35,160 nt of DNA, taken from positions 1 through 35,160 of the forward strand of contig JAEEJM010000021.1 of the NCBI GenBank assembly GCA_016281895.1, read 5' to 3'. The notes below the pieces were generated by a model. It did not search any database and had not been told where the DNA came from. It saw only the letters and a list, made by a program, of their open reading frames with translations. Origin of the DNA: Clostridiales bacterium (GTDB lineage: Bacteria; Bacillota; Clostridia; Oscillospirales; CAG-272). Shown piece after piece: positions 7,963 to 21,288 of this stretch (position 1 is its first letter; every line of letters starts with the position of its first letter). The position numbers and the translations under genes were made by a program.

Positions 7963-10900
7963 ATGTTCGCTTCAGGTCAGTCAGGCCGAAGACGTTTCCC
8001 GGCTCTGTTCCGTATCCGCTTTACGCTGTCCGCGGCCGCTGCCGCGGCGCTGCTCCTCTCTGCCCTTGTCACGGCTCCGGTCGCCGCCGCGGCGGCCGCC
8101 GGAGAAGCCGCCGCGGACGCGTATACGGTCAGTTCTTATGCTGCCGGCGGAGCCGCCGCGGCGGACGCTTACACCGTCAGCTACGACGCCGGCGGCGGGA
8201 CCGGCGCCGTCGACCCCGTCCGCTGCGAAAAGGGCGGCTTCGTCGCCCTGGCCTGGCCCGACGGACTCACCGGACGGGACGGGCTCGCATTCGGCGGATG
8301 GAAGGACGGCGATGGAAAGATACGGCAGCCGGGCGAGATGGTCAGGCCGTCGGGCGACGCCGTGTATACAGCCGTCTGGGTAAGGCCGGTGACGGTGTAC
8401 ATCGACCCCGCGGCCGGAAAGTCGACCAACAGCGGAAAGACTCCCTCGTCGCCGGTCTCTTCGATCACCGACGCCCAGAGCAAGGTAAAATCGACCTACG
8501 GCTACTACGGCAGCGTCTATTCCACCACCTTCGTCTTCATGTCGCCGTTCGAGACCTCCTCCAAGGGGCAGACGATCACGGTCCCGGTGACGATCACCGC
8601 GGCCGAGTCGACGGGCGGCGAGAGCGACGGCGACGCGGCCCTGCTCACGCTGGGCGGCACCGTGCTTGCAAAGGCGCCCGTCTGGTTCCGCGACATCTCG
8701 ATGAAGGACAGCGGCTCGCACAACCTCTGCGCCTGCGGCAATCCAGTGCGCTTCACGGGCATATCGACGCCCGACGGTTATACCGCGGCCAACCTGTTCG
8801 GAGCCGGGAGCTCGGTGAACTATCCGGCAGGCACCGACGTCGGGTCGACGGCGGTGCCGACCTCGCTCTTCATAGAGAGCGGCAGCTTCAACTTCGTATA
8901 CGGGGGAGGCAACACCGTATCCGCCTCCGACGTATGCATCGAGTTCTCGGGCGGACGGGCGGTGAGCCTGTTCGGAGGAGGAAACTCGGCCGGAGTGACC
9001 GGCGACGTCGTTGTCCGCGTCAGCGGAGGCAGCGTGGGGTCGCTCACCGCGGGAGGAAGGGCCTCGGGCGTCGAGGGCGGCTGCAGGCTGTACATCGACG
9101 GCGGCGAGGTGGCATCGGTATCCGAGGGCTGCGGCAACGGCACCTCGGTCATAAAGAACGGCACGACGGTGGGGTGCTCGGGCGAGTTCGTCCCGGTATC
9201 GTACTCGCAGAACGGGGCCGTCGGGACAGTCAAGGTCGACCTGCAGTACAGGTTCGGCGACACGATGAGGCTCGCCTATCCCGACGGGCTCTATCTTGAG
9301 AACCGCGGCCTGTACAGATGGACGCTGGGCGGCAGGAGCTATGCCCCCGGCGACAGATTCGAGACCGGAGACACCTACCTCGTCTTCACGCCCGAATGGC
9401 GCGTCCCGTACAGCGTATGGGTCGACCAGAAGAACGGCAGCGATTCGGCAAAGGGGACTAAGGCCGCGCCGGTCAGGACCCTTGCCGCGGCATACGCCCT
9501 GCTCCGCGACGCGGACGGCGGCGGATCGGTATATACGAACGTTATTCATATAGTCGGTACATATAAGGCCGATGCCGGCGAGCAGACGGGAGGCAAGCCC
9601 GCCTCGCTCACGGACGGGACGCTGGAGCTCTTCGAGCTCACGGCGCACGCTGACCTGAGGGTGGCCTGCGCCGTGACCGGATGGGGCGTGCTGTCGTCCG
9701 CCGGCGGCAATGTGCGCATCGAGCACAGGGACGCCTGCATCGGGCAGATCGTCAGCGCCGGCGGAGTCAGCGTCGCGGCGGGACACGTTAGAACGGTCTC
9801 GGGCGGCGGCGATCTGACGGTGTGCGGAGGAACGGTCGACGCCGCCGGGTTCTGCGGCGACATAAGACTCGGCTCCGGCACGCTCGGCAGGGCCGACGAG
9901 TCGAACGGGGTCCTCACGGTCACCGGAGGGAAGCTGGGGGGCACGTCCTGCGCAAAGACGGAGATACTCCTCACAGCCGGGCGGAGCCTCGAGATAACCG
10001 GGCCGGCCGTCTGCGCGTCTTATACGGGCGGCGGGAAGCTTGCCATCACGGGGTCCGGGAAGCTCGAGATAGGGACTCACAGGGGCTCCCCGACAGAGAT
10101 AACGGCCGTTCCGGAGCTGTCCGGCGCGGTGGCGGTGAGCTCGCCCGGCAGCCGGTCCGGCCTGTTCTACGGGGCCGGAGTGCTGGCCTCGGACGGCGAG
10201 TGGAAGACGGGGACACTCGTCACCTGGCACCTCGACGGTCAGACCGGCCGCGTCTTCGCTGAGCAGGACGGGAGCTTTACCCTGCCGGACATCTCGCCGG
10301 CCGCGGGCTATTCCAACGGAACGTGGTATACCGACGCCGCCATGACCAGGCCGTATACCGGCGCCCCTGCGGCGGGCGCGCTCGAGCTGTGGTCGCCGGC
10401 CGCGCCTAACGGCGCGTGCACGCTGTACCTCTCGACGACATCCGGCAGTGTCGACTTCGGCGGCCGGGAGTATTCCTCCGCACTTTACAGCGACATGTCG
10501 TCGCACAGCCTGCGCGAGGGCTCGACGGTCACGCTGACCGCGAAGGAGACCTCGTCGGCACCCTTCATATGCTGGCTCGACGAGACGGCCGGCAGGGTCG
10601 TGTCGACCGGGGCCGTGCTCGAATACAGACTGTCCGGCGACGTCCGCCTTACGGCGCTCTTCGGGAACGCCGTCGGAAACAACTGCACCGTCCTGTTCTG
10701 CGACGGGGGACGGGTCGTCTCCTCGCTCGGGATAAAGCGCGGCTCGAAGCTGTCTGAGGATCAGATCCCGCAGCCTCTTGAGCTCGTTCCCGGCAGGCGC
10801 TTCTCCGGCTGGGACCGTCCTCTGACCGATCCCGTGACGGACAGCGTCATCATAAGCGCGGTCTATGAGGCCGTGCCGGACCGCGTGACACAGACCTATA

Positions 10901-12909: not shown

Positions 12910-14436
12910 TCAGTTGCCCTCGACGGCCTTGTAAGAGGTCTCGATAAGAGTCACATAGTCGTTGAACATGCGCAGAGTGCTCTGGATCGGGCGCTTCTGC
13001 GATGCGGCCGCGGACGCCGCGGACGAGCCGCTGAACACGGCCGATATGATGGTGTCGACCGGGTTGAATATGGTATAGAGGTCGGAGATGTAATAGCCTA
13101 TGGTGTCCTTGATGGTGTCGAGCATCTCGGCGGTCTCGGCGTCGCTGGCGCGCTTGGTCTTCATGGTGAGCTCGTAGTAGGCCTCCATGGTGGTCGTGGA
13201 GGAGACGTACCCCCAGTAGTCCATGACGGCCGCCACGCGCTTCTTATCGACCTGGACCGAGTTCGGTATGCAGAACAGGGCGGAGTTGTTGTCGATCTTC
13301 TCGACGTACTCCTCCTGGTCGGAGTTGAACTTCGGGTTCATGACGATGCCGAAGCCGCGGGTCATGCCGACAAGGTCGCTGGAGGAGTCCATCGTGGTCT
13401 GGGTAAACAGGAAGTGGTCCTGAGCGAACAGGGCGCGGCCGCGGGCGAAGCTGTTCGGGAAGTCGCCTTCGATCTGGCCGAGGGTGTTGGCGTCGGAGTA
13501 TGTGATGCAGCTCTCGGGATCGTTCAGCAGGCTGTTGAGCTTCTCGGCGATCAGGTCGAGCCTGTCGATGTAGCCCTCCTCGGCGACGCATATGACCGGT
13601 TTGCCGTCGGCGTCCCTGCCGACCCACGGGATGCCGCAGCCGGTGACCATGAAGTTGCGGTTGGCCGAGGGCTCGGCAAGCATTCCGTAAGTGCCCAGGG
13701 TGCCTTCGGCGGCGTCGTTCTTCACGCTCCTGGCGAGCAGCAGGAAGTTGTCGAGCGTCCACTCGTTATCCTTGACGAACTGGTAGGGGCTCTTGAGGTT
13801 GTAGTCCTCGAGCACGCCCTTGCTGAAGAAGAACGCGCGGCAGGCCGCCACGTTGGCGACCGACACGTCGTTGGGCATTATGAAGACCCTGCCGCCCATG
13901 GTATAGGCCTTCAGAGCGTTGGCGTCCCACCATTTGGACGTCAGGTCGACGTTCTCCAGCGAATAGAAGTCATAGAGCAGGCCGTCCGTGGCGCTGGAGG
14001 AAAGGGTGTTGCGCTGGCAGATCATGATGTCGTAATCGACCTGCTCGCCGGCAATGTCCGTCTTGAGGGTCTTCTGGGGCGATTCCACCTCGCGGAACAC
14101 GAGGTTCACGCGGTACTTCTCCTCGACCATCCGGTTGCGTGAGGTCGACGCCTCGCTGACGATGTCCGTCCCCTCTTCGGTCGTTACGTAGCGGACCTTG
14201 TAGCTGCCGACGGTGTGGCTCCTCATGTAGACCGTGAAGTCCTCTCCGCCGTAGTCGGCGTCCACGAACTGCTTTTCGGTCTGCGCGGGTTCGCCGCTCC
14301 CGTCGCCGCCGGACTGGACGGCCGGTCTCTCCCCTGTCCCGCTGTCCGTACCGGTATCGGTGTTGCCGCACGCGCCGAGCAGCCCCGCGGCAAGGACGGC
14401 CGCGAGGATCAGCAGGGCTGTGATCGTTTTTTTCAT
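12910..14436 (-). CDS. Extracellular solute-binding lipoprotein (family-1-like, 508 aa), paralog 1
   Basis: Signal peptide plus lipobox (LLGACGN), with AAGGAG upstream. The region KWWDANALKAYTMGGRVFIMPNDVSV...NEWTLDNF resembles large sugar-type ABC binding proteins. Confidence 0.7.
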   Translation of the reverse strand: MKKTITALLILAAVLAAGLLGACGNTDTGTDSGTGERPAVQSGGDGSGEPAQTEKQFVDADYGGEDFTVYMRSHTVGSYKVRYVTTEEGTDIVSEASTSRNRMVEEKYRVNLVFREVESPQKTLKTDIAGEQVDYDIMICQRNTLSSSATDGLLYDFYSLENVDLTSKWWDANALKAYTMGGRVFIMPNDVSVANVAACRAFFFSKGVLEDYNLKSPYQFVKDNEWTLDNFLLLARSVKNDAAEGTLGTYGMLAEPSANRNFMVTGCGIPWVGRDADGKPVICVAEEGYIDRLDLIAEKLNSLLNDPESCITYSDANTLGQIEGDFPNSFARGRALFAQDHFLFTQTTMDSSSDLVGMTRGFGIVMNPKFNSDQEEYVEKIDNNSALFCIPNSVQVDKKRVAAVMDYWGYVSSTTTMEAYYELTMKTKRASDAETAEMLDTIKDTIGYYISDLYTIFNPVDTIISAVFSGSSAASAAASQKRPIQSTLRMFNDYVTLIETSYKAVEGN

Positions 14437-14593: not shown

Positions 14594-16123
14594 TCAGTTA
14601 CCCTCTATGGCCTTGTAGGAGGTCTTGAGATACTCGACCTGCTTGTCGTACTGGTTCATCGTGTATGTGATCATACGGGCCTGCTGGGCCGCGGCCGTGG
14701 CCGCCGACGAACCGCCGAACGTCTGGGATATTATGAAATCGACGCTGCCGAAGATGGTGAAAAAGTCCGAGATGTAGTATCCCACGGTGGCCTTGATCGT
14801 GTCGAGCATCTCGGCCGTCTCGGCGTCCGTGGCGCGCTTGAGCTTGAGGGTGAGGTCGTAATACGCCTCCATGGTGGTCCCGTGGGACTCCCAGCCCCAG
14901 TAGTCCATTATGACCGCCACGCGTTTCTTGTCCACCTGGACGGAATTCGGGATGCAGAAGATGGCGGAGTTGTTGTCGATCTTCTCCACGTACTCCTTCT
15001 GGTCGGAGTCGTACTTCGGATTCATGACGACGCCCACACCCTTCGGCATCTCGGTGAACTGTTTCGAGTCGCTGAGCGTGGCGTGCGTGAACAGCATGTG
15101 CCCCTGTGCGAACAGCGCTCTGCCGCGGTCGAACTCGTGGGCGAACGATCCCTCTATGACCCCCAGGGCGTTGGCCTCGCTGAAGGTTATGGCGCACTCC
15201 CTGTCCTTGAAGAGGGAGTTCAGCTTCTCGGCTATGAGGTCGAGCTTCGCGAGGTTGCCCTCCTCGGCGACCGAGATGACCGGCCTGCCTTCGCTGTCCC
15301 TTCCGACCCACGGGATGCCGCAGCCGGTGACCATGAAGTTCTGGTTGGCCGCCGTCTCGACCAGCATGCCGTAGGTGCCGAGCTCGCCGGCCGGCGAGTC
15401 GTTTCTGACGCTCCTGGCCAGGGCGATGAAGTTGTCCAGGGTCCACTGATTCTCCTTCACGTACTGGTAGGGGCTCGTGAGGTTGTAGTCCTCGATTATC
15501 GACTTGTTGAAGAAGAATATGCGGACTGCCGAGATGTTGGCTATGGAGACGTCGTTCGGCATGATGAACACCATGCCGTTGATGTCGTAGGCCTCCCTGG
15601 CGTTCGCGTCCCACCAGACGGTGTCAAGGTCCACGCCCTCCAGGCGGTTGAAGTCATAGAGCAGGCCCTTGGTCATAACCTCGGAGAGGCCGTTCCTGGC
15701 GGCGATCATTATATCGTAGTCGACCTGCTCGCCGGCGATGTCCGAAGCGAGCGTCTTCTGCGGCGATGCGGTCTCGCGGAACTCGAGCTTTACGTTGTAT
15801 TTGTCCTCGACCCTGTGGTTCCTGGTCGTCGAGGCCTCGCTGACGATGTCGGTGCCCTCGTCGGAGGTCACGTACAGCACCTTGTAGCTCTCGGTGTCGT
15901 GGCTGCGCATGTAGACGGTGAACTTTTCCCCTCCGTAGTTCGCCTCCCTGAACTTCGGGCCGGTGTCCTCCTGATCCCCGGACTGATCCTCCGCGGGACC
16001 TGCGGACTCTCCCGGGGGGACGGTGGTGATACCGCCGGCCTCGCCGCTCCCGCAGGATGCAAGAAAAGCAAACAGAACGAGGATCGAAAGAGCCAGAGCG
16101 GCGGCAGCTGTTTTTCTGATCAT
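14594..16123 (-). CDS. Extracellular solute-binding lipoprotein (509 aa), paralog 2
   Basis: Lipobox FLASCGSG. It is collinear with and clearly homologous to the 12910-14436 product along its full length. Confidence 0.7.
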   Translation of the reverse strand: MIRKTAAAALALSILVLFAFLASCGSGEAGGITTVPPGESAGPAEDQSGDQEDTGPKFREANYGGEKFTVYMRSHDTESYKVLYVTSDEGTDIVSEASTTRNHRVEDKYNVKLEFRETASPQKTLASDIAGEQVDYDIMIAARNGLSEVMTKGLLYDFNRLEGVDLDTVWWDANAREAYDINGMVFIMPNDVSIANISAVRIFFFNKSIIEDYNLTSPYQYVKENQWTLDNFIALARSVRNDSPAGELGTYGMLVETAANQNFMVTGCGIPWVGRDSEGRPVISVAEEGNLAKLDLIAEKLNSLFKDRECAITFSEANALGVIEGSFAHEFDRGRALFAQGHMLFTHATLSDSKQFTEMPKGVGVVMNPKYDSDQKEYVEKIDNNSAIFCIPNSVQVDKKRVAVIMDYWGWESHGTTMEAYYDLTLKLKRATDAETAEMLDTIKATVGYYISDFFTIFGSVDFIISQTFGGSSAATAAAQQARMITYTMNQYDKQVEYLKTSYKAIEGN

Positions 16124-16274: not shown

Positions 16275-17297
16275 TCAGTCCTCTCTTCTTCTCCTGACGG
16301 TGAAGAAGGCAGCGCCGGCGGCCATTATCGCGACCGCTGCGGTGACGAACCAGACGGCGTTGTCGCCGGTGGCGGGAGCGGTGGTCCCGGAACCGGATCC
16401 GCCCTGGGAGGCGTCTCCGCTGGCGGAAGTGGTGGTTTCGGATTCGCTCTGAGAAGCGACCGCTTCATATACGTTGAACTCGGTGAGTCTGGCGCAGTAC
16501 CAGAAGCCATCGACCTTGGGCAGATTGTTCGCGGCATCTCTTCTGGAGCTGACGCAGGCGTAGGCAATGTTGGTGACGCCCTTGTAAGTCTGCTTGAAGT
16601 CCGCGGAAAGCGTCCTGTACCAGTAGAAGTCAGTTGCGGGGTCGCTGCCCTGGACATGTTCCCAGTCGCCGCCTTTGTCTTTGAGCCAGAAAGAAGCCTG
16701 CATACCTTCCGTGGTGTCGTTGCCGTCCGCGTCCTTTTTGATGTTCAGTCTTGTGGACTCATAGGCGACGGTCCAGGTATTGCCGCCGTCCTGGGAAACC
16801 AGGATGTCGAAAGCCGAATCCGCCCACCATTCGGCAATGGGATAATTGATTATGTCTGTTTCTCCGCTCCAGAAGAGCTGGAAGCTGTCGACGTCGCAGG
16901 AAAGATCACTATACTGAATGTCGTAGAGATATTTTTTCGTGGAACCGTCGGCAAGCTTGAATTCAATGGTTCCCCCCTCTTTTTCAATCCGTGTGGCATA
17001 TTGAACTTGAGCTGCATAAGCTGTGCTGCTTGAATCGAGAGCCCAGACCTCGTTAAGATACTGCGCCTTTCTATTATTGTCAGGACTCCAGATAGTGCCG
17101 TCGGTGAGTTTCTTGTCGACCACTCCATTCGGTTTTTCGCCGTAAAGCTTGCCCTCCTTGCCGCTAAGGACGTCGACCTTGGTGCCGAGATCCTCTTTGA
17201 TCGGAGCCGTGGCCCAGTTTACAGTCGCTGCAAAAGCCGCGGGAGCGAAAGCAAGGATCATGAGCGCCGCGAGAATGATGCTGATAGCTCTTTTCAT
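16275..17297 (-). CDS. Surface protein P1: discoidin (F5/8 type C)-like ectodomain with a TGDN-type sortase-like C-terminal anchor
   Basis: Signal peptide MKRAISIILAALMILAFAPAAFA. Motifs AFDILVSQDGGNTWTVAYESTRL and ARLTEFNVYE resemble discoidin/CBM32 domains. The tail is APATGDNAVWFVTAAVAIMAAGAAFFTVRRRRED. Confidence 0.75.
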   Translation of the reverse strand: MKRAISIILAALMILAFAPAAFAATVNWATAPIKEDLGTKVDVLSGKEGKLYGEKPNGVVDKKLTDGTIWSPDNNRKAQYLNEVWALDSSSTAYAAQVQYATRIEKEGGTIEFKLADGSTKKYLYDIQYSDLSCDVDSFQLFWSGETDIINYPIAEWWADSAFDILVSQDGGNTWTVAYESTRLNIKKDADGNDTTEGMQASFWLKDKGGDWEHVQGSDPATDFYWYRTLSADFKQTYKGVTNIAYACVSSRRDAANNLPKVDGFWYCARLTEFNVYEAVASQSESETTTSASGDASQGGSGSGTTAPATGDNAVWFVTAAVAIMAAGAAFFTVRRRRED

Positions 17298-17751: not shown

Positions 17752-18816
17752 TCAGCTTCTTTTTCTGCGGAAGACGACCGCGCCGGCCGCGGCTACCGCG
17801 AGAACGGGGAGCAGGGCAACGGAGTTCTTGCAGCCCTTCTTCTCCTCCTTGGGGGCCTCGGTGGCGGGAGCCTGGGTGGCCGGAGCCTGAGTCTCGGGGG
17901 CCTTGGTCTCGGGGGCCTTGGTCTCGGGAGCCTGGGTCTCGGGGGCCTTGGTCTCGGGGGCCTGGGTCTCGGACTCGGCGGCCAGCTTGTGGTTGGTTCC
18001 GTATACGTCGAACTCGGTGATCCTGGCGATGTAGTAGAAGGCGTTGGAGGTGAACGTGGTGGTTATGCCTTCACGCCTGGGGTTGACGCAGCCGTAGGCG
18101 ATGTTGGTGACGCCGGTGTACTCCTTGTTGAAGTCGGCGACGATATACCTGTACCAGTAGTACTCGGTATCGGTGGCCTTCTCGACATGGGTCCAGTCGC
18201 CGCCCTTGTCAACGGTGAACGCCGACATCTTGTCGACGACAGTTTTGCCCTCGGCGTCGGTGGTCCAGGTGAGTCTGGTGGACTCCCATGCCACGGTCCA
18301 GGTCTGGCCGTTGTCCTGGGAGACCAGGATGTCGAAAGCGGCGTCGGCCTGCCACTCGGCTACGGGCTTGTCACCGACGGAATAGTCGTTCTCGTTGCTC
18401 CACCAGATGGCGAAGCTGCGGACGTCGCAGTCGAGGCCTTCGAAATCCCACTCGTAGAAGTACTTCTTGACGGTGCCGTCGGTCATGGTGAACTCGCAGG
18501 TGCGGATGTCGTTCTTCTCGTCGTTGGTGGCGACTTCGACGGCGGAGGTGTCGCCGTCCTTCTTCTGCCAGGACTTGTTGATGTACTGGGCGGAGCCTTC
18601 CAGAGGCCTGCAGACGATGCCGTCGGTGAGGACGCCGCTTCCGTCGGGGCTGAACTCCTGGGTCGGAGCGTTCACAACGGCGATCTCGCCGTCAAGCACG
18701 TCGACCTTCCCGCCGAGATCAGCGTGGATGTAACCGTCTTCCGCCAGTGCGAAAGCAGGGACAGCCATGGAGAGCGCCAGCACGGCGATAAGAGCGAGAT
18801 AGAGTGCTTTTTTCAT
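17752..18816 (-). CDS. Surface protein P2: discoidin-like ectodomain, ETQAP/ETKAP linker, KKGC-TM-RRKR tail
   Basis: Signal peptide MKKALYLALIAVLALSMAVPAFA with AAGGAG upstream. It has FDILVSQDNGQTWTVAWESTRL and ARITEFDVYG. The tail is KKGCKNSVALLPVLAVAAAGAVVFRRKRS. Confidence 0.8.
   Translation of the reverse strand: MKKALYLALIAVLALSMAVPAFALAEDGYIHADLGGKVDVLDGEIAVVNAPTQEFSPDGSGVLTDGIVCRPLEGSAQYINKSWQKKDGDTSAVEVATNDEKNDIRTCEFTMTDGTVKKYFYEWDFEGLDCDVRSFAIWWSNENDYSVGDKPVAEWQADAAFDILVSQDNGQTWTVAWESTRLTWTTDAEGKTVVDKMSAFTVDKGGDWTHVEKATDTEYYWYRYIVADFNKEYTGVTNIAYGCVNPRREGITTTFTSNAFYYIARITEFDVYGTNHKLAAESETQAPETKAPETQAPETKAPETKAPETQAPATQAPATEAPKEEKKGCKNSVALLPVLAVAAAGAVVFRRKRS
17851..17970 (-). repeat. 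15-nt tandem repeat (8 units) encoding the P2 Pro/Thr/Glu linker
   Basis: Units of the form gggggccttggtctc run in register from 17851 and encode (E/A)T(Q/K)AP. Confidence 0.85.
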
Positions 18817-19040: not shown

Positions 19041-20093
19041 TTATTTCCTTTTTCTGCGGAAGACGGCCGCGCCGGCCGCGGCTGCCGCGAGAACGGGAAG
19101 CAGGGCGGCAAAGCTGCCGCAGCCCTTCTTCTCCTCCTTGGGGGCCTCGGTGGCCGGAGCCTGGGTGGCGGGAGCCTGGGTCTCGTGGGCCTGGGTGTCC
19201 GGAGCCTGGGTCCCGGGGGCCTTGGTCTCGGGAGCCTGGGTATCCGGAGCCTGGGTCTCGGGGGCCTGGGTCTCGGGCTCGGTCTCGACGGCCTTATGGT
19301 TGGTGCCGTACACGTCGAACTCGGTTATCCTGGCGATGTAGTAGAAGGGGTTGTTTGTGAAGACGGGCGTCGCGCTCTCGCGCCTGGCGTTGACGCAGCC
19401 GTAGGCGATGTTGGTGACTCCGGTGTACTCCTTGTTGAAGTCGGCGCTGATGTACCTGTACCAGTAGTACTCGGTGTCGGTGGCCTTCTCGACGTGGGTC
19501 CAGTCGCCGCCCTGTTCGACTGTGAACGCGGACATCTTGTCGACGGTCTTGTTGCCCTCGGCGTCGGTGGTCCAGGTGAGTCTCGTGGACTCCCATGCAA
19601 CGGACCAGGTCTGGCCGCCGTCCTGGGAGACCAGGATGTCGAAAGCGGCGTCGGCCTGCCATACGGCGACCACGGATTCGGGGACGGAGTAATCCTTCTC
19701 GTTGCTCCACCAGATGGAGAAGCTGCTGACGTCGCAGTCAAGGCCTTCGAAGTCCCACTCGTAGTAGTACTTCTTGACGGTGCCGTCTGTCATGGTGAAC
19801 TCGCAGGTGGCGTTGCCGGCGTTCTCGGCCTCGGTGGCCTCGGCGACGCTGCCGATCCAGCTCTTGTTGAAGTACATGGAGCTTTCAAGGGGCTTGCAGA
19901 TGATGCCGTCGGTGAGTCTGTCGTCAGAGTCCGGAGCGAAGTCTTTGTTGGGAGCGTTCAGCACGGCGATCTCGCCGTCGAGGACGTCGACCTTCCCGCC
20001 AAGTTCCGGGTAGACATAGTCGAACGCGGCGGCCGGGACGGCCAGAGACAGAGCAAGCAGCACGGCAAAGGTGAGTAACAGTGCTTTTTTCAT
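19041..20093 (-). CDS. Surface protein P3, a close paralog of P2
   Basis: Long stretches are identical to P2 (TCEFTMTDGTVKKY.YEWDFEGLDCDV.SF.IWWSNE.DYSV; GGDWTHVEKATDTEYYWYRYI.ADFNKEYTGVTNIAYGCVN). The tail is KKGCGSFAALLPVLAAAAAGAAVFRRKRK. Confidence 0.8.
   Translation of the reverse strand: MKKALLLTFAVLLALSLAVPAAAFDYVYPELGGKVDVLDGEIAVLNAPNKDFAPDSDDRLTDGIICKPLESSMYFNKSWIGSVAEATEAENAGNATCEFTMTDGTVKKYYYEWDFEGLDCDVSSFSIWWSNEKDYSVPESVVAVWQADAAFDILVSQDGGQTWSVAWESTRLTWTTDAEGNKTVDKMSAFTVEQGGDWTHVEKATDTEYYWYRYISADFNKEYTGVTNIAYGCVNARRESATPVFTNNPFYYIARITEFDVYGTNHKAVETEPETQAPETQAPDTQAPETKAPGTQAPDTQAHETQAPATQAPATEAPKEEKKGCGSFAALLPVLAAAAAGAAVFRRKRK
19140..19274 (-). repeat. 15-nt tandem repeat (9 units) encoding the P3 linker
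   Basis: Same repeat family as 17851-17970 but with one more unit and different variants. Confidence 0.85.
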
Positions 20094-20223: not shown

Positions 20224-21288
20224 TTATTCGTACCTGCGGCGTCTGACGACGAAGGTCCCTACGGCGGCTGCCATGGCAAGTATGGCGGCGCCGGCGAACC
20301 AGACGGCGTTGTCGCCGGTCGGGGCGGAGGGAGCGGGAGTGCCGGAACCGGAGGAGGCGGGCTGAGCGTTCACGATCTCTTCATAGCTGAGGCCTACGCC
20401 CTCGACCAGCCTGAGGTTGTTGCAGTAATTGTGGCGCTCGTAGCCGTCTCTGCAGGATACGCCGAGCACGATGTCGGCGCCGTCCTCGGCGGTGTAGGTT
20501 ACCGCGCTGCCTTCGCTGTCGGCCTTGACCCATTTGTTCTGACCGTCGAGGTACCAGGCGCTCACGTCGAGGCCCTTGTATTCGACCTTCCAGGCGGTGA
20601 AGAAGACTCCGCCGGGATGGGTCTCGGTGGCATTCTCGTTGTTGATGGAGGAGCAGTTGTCGTTAAAGCCCGCGGGAAGCGCGATGTCGATGCGCTTCGG
20701 GTGTGAGGTGAGGCGGTGATCATCGGAGTAGCCCGTGCCGAGCAGGGTGTCGTCGCAGCTGTTGCGGTCATAGCAGAAGAAGGTCTCGGTCCATCTCTTG
20801 CCGTTGGCGTCCTTGGTGTCGCCCTCGTCGGAATAATGACCGGAGAGCATCACTATGCGCTTGTGGACGGGGATGCTGTCGTTGCCTTTCTCATCGTCGT
20901 CGGTCTTGGGATCGAAGTCGCCCGGCTCGCGCATGATGACTATGCCGGAGTATTTGGTGTGGTGCGGGGAGGCCGCTTCGAAATAAATGGTGTAATTGGT
21001 GTTCGCGGAGATCTTGTAGCCGGTCTCTTCGAAGTAGCAGAGCTGGCCGTCTTTGTCGCCGGTGGATTTCACGGGAAGGAGCAGATCCGAGGTGGAATTG
21101 GACAGGTCGTATTTCTCCTCGAATTTGACGGTCTTTCCCTTCCAGTAGTCGACGGTCACGAATTTGTCCTTGTCGGCTATCCAGTCGACTTTGAACAGGA
21201 GGTCGCCTTTTTTTGCCGAGGCCGTGACCGGAACGAACAGGGCCGCCGCCATGGCAAGAAGGATTACGAAAACGATCGCTTTTTTCAT
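20224..21288 (-). CDS. Surface protein P4: unrelated ectodomain with the same TGDN-type tail as P1
   Basis: I chose the start at 21286-21288 (MKKAIVFVILLAMAAALFVPVTASA) because it follows AGGAG; the ORF-track start at 21426 adds 46 implausible residues. The tail is SAPTGDNAVWFAGAAILAMAAAVGTFVVRRRRYE. Confidence 0.75.
   Translation of the reverse strand: MKKAIVFVILLAMAAALFVPVTASAKKGDLLFKVDWIADKDKFVTVDYWKGKTVKFEEKYDLSNSTSDLLLPVKSTGDKDGQLCYFEETGYKISANTNYTIYFEAASPHHTKYSGIVIMREPGDFDPKTDDDEKGNDSIPVHKRIVMLSGHYSDEGDTKDANGKRWTETFFCYDRNSCDDTLLGTGYSDDHRLTSHPKRIDIALPAGFNDNCSSINNENATETHPGGVFFTAWKVEYKGLDVSAWYLDGQNKWVKADSEGSAVTYTAEDGADIVLGVSCRDGYERHNYCNNLRLVEGVGLSYEEIVNAQPASSGSGTPAPSAPTGDNAVWFAGAAILAMAAAVGTFVVRRRRYE

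Follow-up and report, generated by a model that had tools for sequence, protein, structure and literature searches.

How is a secreted protein held at the cell surface when its C-terminus is laid out like a sorting signal, with a Gly-Cys motif rather than LPXTG? The question is raised by P2 and P3, two paralogous proteins encoded in a stretch of 35,160 nucleotides from a Clostridiales bacterium (Oscillospirales, CAG-272; assembly GCA_016281895.1, contig JAEEJM010000021.1), which was analyzed in full and is referred to here as the window. It is contig C31 of a source assembly of 1.83 Mb with a G+C content of 62% and a completeness of 86%. The C-terminal tail of P2 and P3 is a conserved, portable and lineage-restricted domain that co-occurs with a pair of genes, one for a divergent LGT-family protein (Lgt2) and one for a CPBP protease, and the genes of tail-bearing client proteins often adjoin this pair. 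By analogy with described systems, the Gly-Cys tail is probably a Cys-type tripartite sorting signal, in which Lgt2 would lipidate the Cys and the CPBP protease would remove the helix, leaving the client with a C-terminal lipid anchor.

P2 is a secreted surface protein of 354 amino acids, translated from an open reading frame at 17752-18816 on the minus strand, to which all its parts and its neighbors P1, P3 and P4 belong. It is composed of a signal peptide, a beta-sandwich ectodomain, a Pro/Thr/Glu-rich linker and the Gly-Cys sorting tail. The N-terminal Sec signal peptide (MKKALYLALIAVLALSMAVPAFAL..., 18745-18816) has no lipobox. The linker (17842-17976) consists of (A/T)PET(Q/K) repeats, is predicted to be disordered, with a predicted local distance difference test score (pLDDT) below 50 from residue 281 onward, and is likely a wall-spanning spacer. 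Behind it, the tail opens with the motif K326-K-G-C-K-N-S332 (17821-17841), in which Gly328 and Cys329 (codon 17830-17832) form the invariant pair, continues with the hydrophobic helix V333-F349 including Pro337 and a conserved Gly345 (17770-17820; helical at residues 337-351 in the structural model), and finishes with the basic cytoplasmic end RRKRS and the stop codon (17752-17769).

The paralog P3 (350 amino acids, 19041-20093) carries the same tail and is 74% identical to P2 by BLASTP and 77% in our alignment A4. Its tail (19041-19130) is made up of the motif KKGCGS (19113-19130) with Cys325 at codon 19119-19121, the helix (19059-19112), and RRKRK with the stop codon (19041-19058). In translation P2 ends in ...EAPKEEKKGCKNSVALLPVLAVAAAGAVVFRRKRS and P3 in ...EAPKEEKKGCGSFAALLPVLAAAAAGAAVFRRKRK, which matches the tails and coordinates given in the preliminary description, whose interval 17752-17865 spans the stop codon and the final 37 codons of P2. 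Both proteins thus share a Sec-type leader, a long (A/T)PET(Q/K) linker and a tail of KKGC, about 20 hydrophobic residues and RRKR. Tails of this type have the layout of the general class of tripartite C-terminal sorting signals as defined by Haft. P2 and P3 do not resemble classical N-terminal lipoproteins, as their leaders end in AFA or AAA without a Cys. The LPXTG anchor model TIGR01167 gives no match for either protein, and the xPxTG motif is absent from both. Pfam and NCBIfam hold no domain for the P2 ectodomain and no sorting-domain model that fits P2 or P3.

The tail turned out to be common property of the source genome. Tails were sought with a regular expression and then with a profile of 32 positions, derived from 20 tails (A1), which located 17-18 places with E-values from 1e-16 to 1e-7, the P3 tail scoring 56.6 bits. 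Such matches are far beyond chance and confirm a real, recurrent and portable domain. In total, 16 complete proteins and one truncated by a contig end terminate in a Gly-Cys tail, which bears out the genome-wide recurrence of the motif that the preliminary description had raised. Every scored match on a complete frame lies at most three residues from the stop codon, and all 16 complete proteins begin with MKK and a hydrophobic leader, that is, an N-terminal signal peptide. Once tails and linkers are stripped, these 16 clients fall into eight clusters without detectable mutual similarity, so that the tail is shared among otherwise non-homologous proteins, a further hallmark of Haft's class. GDSL/SGNH hydrolase and CBM6 domains can be recognized among the clients; the majority have no Pfam domain.

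Two of the ectodomain clusters also contain a protein with a sortase-type tail, P1 and P4, respectively. P1 (16275-17297) has the ectodomain common to P2 and P3, at 43% identity, and ends in APATGDNAVWF...RRRRED, which passes TIGR01167 with 23.2 bits at a cut-off of 15.9. P4 (20224-21288) has an unrelated ectodomain, whose family includes four Gly-Cys-tailed members on other contigs (three on C105, one on C127), and its end SAPTGDNAVWF...RRRRYE scores 15.8 bits against the same cut-off. Therefore, both kinds of tail have been exchanged on the same ectodomains. Together with the eight unrelated ectodomain families, this agrees with the earlier view of the tail as a swappable cassette.

The conservation of the tail was evaluated in an alignment of 56 tails from about 30 species, anchored on the Cys. 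Position 0 is Cys and position -1 is Gly in every one of them (56/56 each). Position +1 is mostly Gly (41, with 8 Lys and 4 Ala), position +2 is Ser in 43 of the 56, positions +3 to +5 are small or aliphatic, and positions -2 and -3 are Lys, Glu, Gly or Ser. The basic cluster starts at a fixed distance of 19-22 residues from the Cys. This yields the consensus [E/K]-x-[K/E]-[K/G/S]-G-C-[G/K]-[S]-small, followed by about 17-19 hydrophobic residues and 3-5 Lys/Arg. Within the helix, position +8 differs between lineages, being Pro in 8 of the 56 tails, as LLPVL in the source genus, and Gln or His (I-A-Q/H) in most tails of the genome G182. Read from the helix toward the Cys, the motif helix-[VA]-[SA]-S-G-C mirrors the lipobox L-[AS]-[GA]-C.

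Orthologs of P2 from other metagenome bins, at 47-61% identity, retain GC[SG]S, the helix and RKK, with G328 invariant in their alignment, and unrelated proteins retrieved through the linker likewise end in GCGS, a helix and KKK. Even in G182, an organism of another order with 41% G+C, the tails read EEGGCGSSMAIAQxMLxLGAAVVxKKRK. The tail is thus kept both among orthologs and across orders. With Gly-Cys in all 56 tails and no match to the LPXTG model, these data support the initial proposal that the tail is a sorting or lipidation signal of non-LPXTG type whose invariant Cys lies next to the membrane.

Another possibility is that the tail works as a plain transmembrane anchor. The helix would then be kept, the Gly-Cys pair would serve in a disulfide, in S-acylation or in helix capping, and the Lgt2-CPBP pair would act elsewhere or in regulated shedding. 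The tail by itself would be sufficient to anchor a protein, and its cleavage is a step that we infer by analogy. A plain anchor, on the other hand, needs neither an invariant Gly-Cys, nor a fixed spacing between Cys and basic cluster, nor lineage-specific helix residues that recur over eight unrelated families. Nor would it be restricted to genomes with one particular protease clade, or have its client genes adjoin the operon of that CPBP protease, as described below. We regard this explanation as rather unlikely.

The tail has a patchy distribution, being peculiar to certain uncultured Clostridia of gut and rumen. In the source genus, all 24 other genomes match A1, with 3-24 matches each, and the congeners carry NCBI labels that include 'uncultured Anaerotruncus sp.' and 'Eubacteriales bacterium'. 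In 16 other families of the order no convincing match was found, two of them giving marginal E-values of about 0.03-0.04. Among 268 high-quality genomes of the class one other genome matched, and in an even sample of the class (300 genomes from 178 genera) only the source genome and G182 were positive. G182 has 10 matches. Around it, A1 matches the genera g124, g194 and g197 but not their sister genera within these families (g39, g140, g192 and g193), nor g150.

Which enzyme follows this distribution? Regular-expression and hydropathy screens of raw open reading frames for CPBP proteins, rhomboids and sortases proved too noisy at 62% G+C and were replaced by Pfam family searches. These identified four CPBP genes (PF02517) in the source genome, none of whose products reaches the cut-off of an Mrt* or any other equivalog in NCBIfam. 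The PF02517 matches of eight tail-positive and 12 tail-negative genomes were placed in a tree (50 of 52 proteins, two weak matches being omitted), in which one clade stands out by an SH-like approximate likelihood ratio test (SH-aLRT) support of 100 and a stem length of 1.45. Each positive genome contributes exactly one protein to it (8/8), and the negative ones contribute none (0/12). The member of the source genome is encoded at 8193-9476 on the minus strand of contig C7. A profile of the clade (A2) was then run over a panel of 80 genomes, where its scores were bimodal, with members at 279-422 bits and paralogs at 68 bits or less. Clade members occur in 28 of 34 tail-positive and in none of 46 tail-negative panel genomes. 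Similarly, in the class sample of 300 genomes, scores above 400 bits are confined to the two tail-positive genomes. Phylogenetic profiling for a CAAX-type protease, suggested in the preliminary description, thus singled out one CPBP clade, and the sporadic occurrence of the tail matches that of a dedicated enzyme, as is typical of Haft's class.

The source protease is a bona fide member of its family by score (62.6 bits to PF02517, gathering score 22.4), and the catalytic motifs FEExxFRG (F122-E-E-x-x-F-R128), FGxxH (H161) and HxxxD/N (H205) are invariant in the clade. The latter two are retained as FGxxHLxNL and LHxxxD/NF, and the clade has a characteristic insert, GAGxG...LQVGYSxLIGxMC. A search of PDB sequences with the CPBP profile returned nothing at E-values up to 1. 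The core myxosortase model Mrt_core (NF040914) gives 21.5 bits against a cut-off of 100 for the source protein and is not among the matches of two other clade members. The top NCBIfam match of the clade is MrtJ, below threshold at 29.7 bits versus 75. The source protein also carries an extra in-frame C-terminal domain of about 165 amino acids (C7:8193-8690, minus strand), which is missing from the congeners G005 and G020 and from all other members and has no match in Pfam or NCBIfam; it could be a real fusion or the result of a lost stop codon.

Two further groups of CPBP proteins were considered and set aside. A second clade, of the C126 type, is partly enriched in tail-positive genomes; it was rejected, since G182, G338 and G005 lack it and one negative genome has it. 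An intermediate relative in the tail-negative genome G259 (C3:123984-124760) scores 189 bits with A2 and lies between dapF-like and CTP-synthase-like genes, with no LGT or client gene nearby. On account of this score and setting it is treated as a sister subfamily.

A sortase, rhombosortase or exosortase/archaeosortase is highly improbable as the enzyme acting on the tail. The substrates of these enzymes share the tripartite layout, and the source genome does have one sortase. However, the LPXTG model matches P1 and not the tails of P2 and P3, and the sortase family (PF04203) does not follow the tail: it occurs in positive genomes and also in many tail-negative ones, and the tail-positive genome G360, at 96% completeness, has none. 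Rhomboids (PF01694) are missing from all seven tested genomes of the source order (G000, which is the source genome, G005, G020, G025, G028, G033 and G037), three of them from the source genus. In the other order, 13 of 13 tested genomes have one. The exosortase model (PF09721) found no match in 20 genomes, a negative of limited sensitivity since it matched one control genome only. The preliminary description had compared the tail with Cys-containing signals of exosortase/archaeosortase-type enzymes; this comparison did not hold in its particulars, as the 20 tested genomes gave no exosortase-family match and the described Cys-type signals pair with CPBP proteases (10.1101/2023.06.07.544157).

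The neighborhood of the protease gene added a second partner that the preliminary description had not foreseen, an LGT paralog coupled to the CPBP gene. In the genomes G357, G360 and G365, one or more client genes are followed by an LGT-family gene (PF01790) of about 260 amino acids and then by the CPBP gene. The equivalent gene of the source genome, assigned by PF01790 and its place in the LGT tree, lies at C7:9473-10393 on the minus strand and scores 89.8 bits to PF01790 (gathering score 24.9), members from genera g194 and g197 reaching about 102 bits. It is not the housekeeping enzyme, which the source genome encodes separately (C2:3269-3997, 254 bits) and which occurs in nearly all of the 20-genome panel at 216-275 bits. 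In the LGT tree, the CPBP-linked genes form a clade of their own (SH-aLRT 100) apart from housekeeping Lgt, and it is this clade that we call Lgt2. A profile of it (A3) reaches at least 300 bits in 26 genomes of the 80-genome panel, all of them tail-positive, and in 26 of 26 the CPBP gene comes immediately after Lgt2 on the same strand. In the source genome the two frames overlap in the sequence ATGA, which combines the start codon ATG of the CPBP gene with the TGA stop codon of Lgt2, and a GAGGGA motif shortly precedes it.

To judge this arrangement more widely, 185,579 species genomes were scanned with A2, giving 434 relatives, of which the best 80 were used for locus counts. All 80 come from uncultured Clostridia of gut, rumen or faeces, sequenced as metagenome bins or as uncultured isolates. 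Lgt2 directly precedes the CPBP gene in 72 of the 78 evaluable species loci, often with overlapping frames and with a median gap of 23 nucleotides between the last base of the Lgt2 frame and the point where the CPBP profile match begins, and in at least 21 of the 80 loci Lgt2 is itself immediately preceded by a tail-bearing gene.

This coupling bears on an alternative in which the CPBP protease is the only dedicated component. The clade protease would cleave the tail, and Lgt2 would be accessory or unrelated. Lipidation of the Cys would fall to housekeeping Lgt or to some other enzyme, or be absent altogether, and an unlipidated protein may then be released. An unrelated Lgt2 is hard to reconcile with its position between client and protease genes, or with the confinement of its clade to tail-positive panel genomes. 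Nevertheless, MrtX processed its substrate in Escherichia coli, which has housekeeping Lgt alone (PMC11980579). The same alternative gains from the sequence of Lgt2 and from the genomes that do without it, both treated next. All in all, we consider it unlikely.

How plausible, then, is Lgt2 as a transferase? It scores 88.2 bits with the lgt equivalog TIGR00544, below the cut-off of 118.9. The Lgt signature G-R-x-G-N-F-x-N-x-E-x-W-G is replaced by GRIGCxxAGCCYG, and HGGL by F(L/Y)GGL. Compared with E. coli Lgt (5azb), the equivalents of Y26, R143, G154, Y235, R239 and E243 are kept. In the E. coli enzyme, H103 and E151 mutants are inactive, H103 is proposed to lie in the site of the lipobox peptide, E151 binds phosphatidylglycerol at the first site, that of substrate selection, and the head domain extends from E151 to P197 (PMC4728403). 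Judged by sequence, the changes in Lgt2 would suit an enzyme whose acceptor is different and inverted, and activity cannot be assumed.

Several observations weigh against the proposed Lgt2-CPBP route. Lgt2 has lost the equivalents of H103 (Leu or Tyr), N146 (Cys) and E151 (Cys), and its head domain is much shorter; therefore, it may use another chemistry or lipid donor, or may be something other than a transferase. The genus g124 (G182 and G338) has tails and the CPBP protease but no Lgt2, so Lgt2 is not universally required, and four further species loci carry the CPBP gene without an adjacent Lgt2. Six tail-positive metagenome-assembled genomes, all 71-85% complete, have no CPBP clade member. 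As to the correlation itself, A1 was seeded mostly from one genus and divergent tails may count as negative, and the panel contains about four positive lineages, hence few independent events of gain or loss.

Some features of these deviating loci, and of LGT paralogs in general, deserve mention. Two of the four CPBP loci without adjacent Lgt2 are flanked, as judged by eye, by a predicted glycerophosphodiester phosphodiesterase gene. It follows the CPBP gene in L155:4813-7442 and L165:1345-2878 of a lineage of the 'Eubacterium sp. CAG:180' type, and in L155 a WecA/TagO-like transferase gene, likewise recognized by eye, also precedes the CPBP gene. An 'Lgt3' clade (G000:C24 and G182:C12) was rejected as specific to the system, as it is also found in tail-negative genomes; a paralog of this type is a candidate substitute for Lgt2 in genus g124. 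More widely, LGT paralogs with GRxGCxxxGCCYG occur in Clostridia, tail-negative genomes included (G000:C24:227-958, G182:C12:63315-64064, G028:C4, G209:C13 and G033:C1:1733350-1734036). In genus g197, a conserved secreted protein of 305-319 amino acids is encoded after the CPBP gene (L050:3918-4835 and L047:4030-4989); it has a C-terminal helix without Gly-Cys and no family match.

The combination of tail and protease invites comparison with known systems. To our knowledge, Cys-type C-terminal signals with CPBP proteases are a recently recognized display route, of which MrtX alone has been tested experimentally. Four such signals have been described, namely MYXO-, JDVT-, Synerg- and CGP-CTERM, all paired with CPBP proteases and hosted by Myxococcota, Pseudomonadota, Synergistota and Thermococcales (10.1101/2023.06.07.544157). 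MrtX cleaves MYXO-CTERM in a Cys-dependent manner. The published model requires an enzyme that lipidates the Cys, which the authors state to be unknown while favoring Lgt as a candidate, and they name the inverted topology and the missing lipobox as open problems (PMC11980579).

The closest relative in design is the MYXO-CTERM/myxosortase system (MrtX/MrtC/MrtP; Myxococcota and Bradymonadales; TIGR03901, NF040914). It has the same tripartite domain with a Gly before the invariant Cys, many clients per genome, a CPBP/Rce1-type partner protease and a proposed order of lipidation and then cleavage. The clostridial tail likewise places an invariant Cys in a Gly-rich signature before the helix, with Gly-Cys in 56 of 56 tails. 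In contrast to the MYXO-CTERM motif GCGC, it reads GCGS with a single Cys. Its hosts carry sortase-type wall anchors and are presumed monoderm, so that no outer membrane or type II secretion step is expected, unlike in MYXO-CTERM. Moreover, the operon coupling of the protease gene to an LGT paralog is unreported for any Mrt system. The other described Cys-type signals share the invariant Cys, the lineage-specific helix residues and the cognate CPBP protease, and in the MrtJ system client and protease genes are often adjacent, as in the clostridial loci. They differ in that the clostridial tail lacks a DP motif in the helix, a GP following the Cys and a Ser/Gly cluster with Cys at its end, in their taxa, in matches that all stay below cut-off, and in having no described LGT partner.

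The database searches agree with this separation. NCBIfam release 20, queried with whole proteins, 10 tails of the source genome and 8 tails of the distant genome G182, yielded nothing above cut-off, and sub-threshold matches cover just the helix and basic portion of other CTERM models. The G182 tails show a weak similarity to the MYXO-CTERM ends of MXAN_6652-family proteins (E-values of 1e-3 to 0.08), and the MYXO-CTERM model TIGR03901 reported none of 18 tails at E-values up to 10. A full-text search of the literature found neither a clostridial Cys-type signal nor an Lgt-CPBP pair described.

The classical lipoprotein pathway, Lgt followed by Lsp, provides a second point of reference. It shares the LGT enzyme, a Cys flanked by Gly or small residues at the outer face, and the logic of lipidation followed by removal of a helix by a membrane protease. 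In the clostridial system, however, the hydrophobic segment lies C-terminal of the Cys, which inverts the topology, the protease is CPBP and not Lsp, and Lgt2 stays below the lgt cut-off with an altered HGGL and signature, next to a separate housekeeping Lgt that is kept. With the LPXTG/sortase route, the Gly-Cys tail has in common the tripartite layout, and one ectodomain family can carry both kinds of tail (P1 and P4 versus P2, P3 and the C105 family). It differs by the enzyme class and by a predicted membrane lipid anchor in place of a link to peptidoglycan.

In light of these comparisons, the following path may be proposed for P2 and P3. After Sec export, the tail helix would hold the protein in an N-out/C-in orientation, which would place the Gly-Cys pair at the outer face of the membrane. 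Lgt2, as a dedicated and divergent LGT-family enzyme, would attach a lipid to the thiol of Cys329 in P2 and of Cys325 in P3. The translationally coupled CPBP protein, a putative glutamic intramembrane protease similar to Rce1, would then cut just after the modified Cys. As a result, the ectodomain would be retained on the cell by a C-terminal lipid as a 'reverse lipoprotein', with the Pro/Thr-rich linker spanning the wall, while P1 and P4 would be wall-anchored, sortase-dependent counterparts from the same ectodomain families. Lipidation, the nature of the lipid, cleavage, its site and the order of steps are here inferred by analogy with Rce1 and MrtX. The gene arrangement fits the published MYXO-CTERM model step by step and adds a dedicated LGT paralog, and for this reason we read the P2 and P3 tails as likely substrates of Lgt2 and then of the CPBP protease.

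As for the ectodomain that would be displayed in this way, the AlphaFold model of P2, based on 11 sequences, reaches a pLDDT of 70-95 in its beta-sandwich core and averages 58, a low to moderate confidence. Foldseek relates it weakly to F5/8-type C, CBM32 and CBM51 modules (best E-value 5e-3, target-normalized TM-score up to about 0.47). Going by this model, the ectodomain of P1, P2 and P3, for which Pfam gives no match, would be compatible with a glycan-binding surface protein.

The other surface anchors of the organism can be read from the same genome. About 11 proteins have sortase-type tails of the form [SA]PxTGD(N/x) instead of LPXTG, located at 16275-16400 and 20224-20350 in the window and on contigs C9, C42, C49, C63, C102, C134, C157 and C176, and there is a single sortase gene (C144:8543-9028). 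Adjoining the Gly-Cys-tailed genes, the window also encodes two paralogous proteins of about 508 amino acids on the minus strand (12910-14436 and 14594-16123) with the classical N-terminal lipoboxes LLGACGN and FLASCGS. Therefore, the organism also runs the ordinary lipoprotein pathway.

If the proposed path is true, the Gly-Cys tail and its partners represent a Firmicute counterpart of the MYXO-CTERM/myxosortase system, with a candidate for the missing lipidating enzyme. We give roughly even chances to the bolder view that Lgt2 is a dedicated 'mirror-lipobox' transferase, the first identified for Cys-type signals, which together with the CPBP protease makes 'reverse lipoproteins' in Clostridia with sortase-type wall anchors, and that by extension LGT-family enzymes provide the missing first step for MYXO-, JDVT-, Synerg- and CGP-CTERM. 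The coupling of Lgt2 and CPBP genes in one operon with adjacent clients would bring the lipidation step within reach of a simple reconstitution with three genes. In uncultured Clostridia of gut and rumen, the annotation of surface proteins would improve by the hundreds, and many of these proteins likely bind carbohydrates or act as esterases. The system would extend Cys-type signals to the Firmicutes and give these bacteria a further means of anchoring, the third after sortase and N-terminal lipoproteins.

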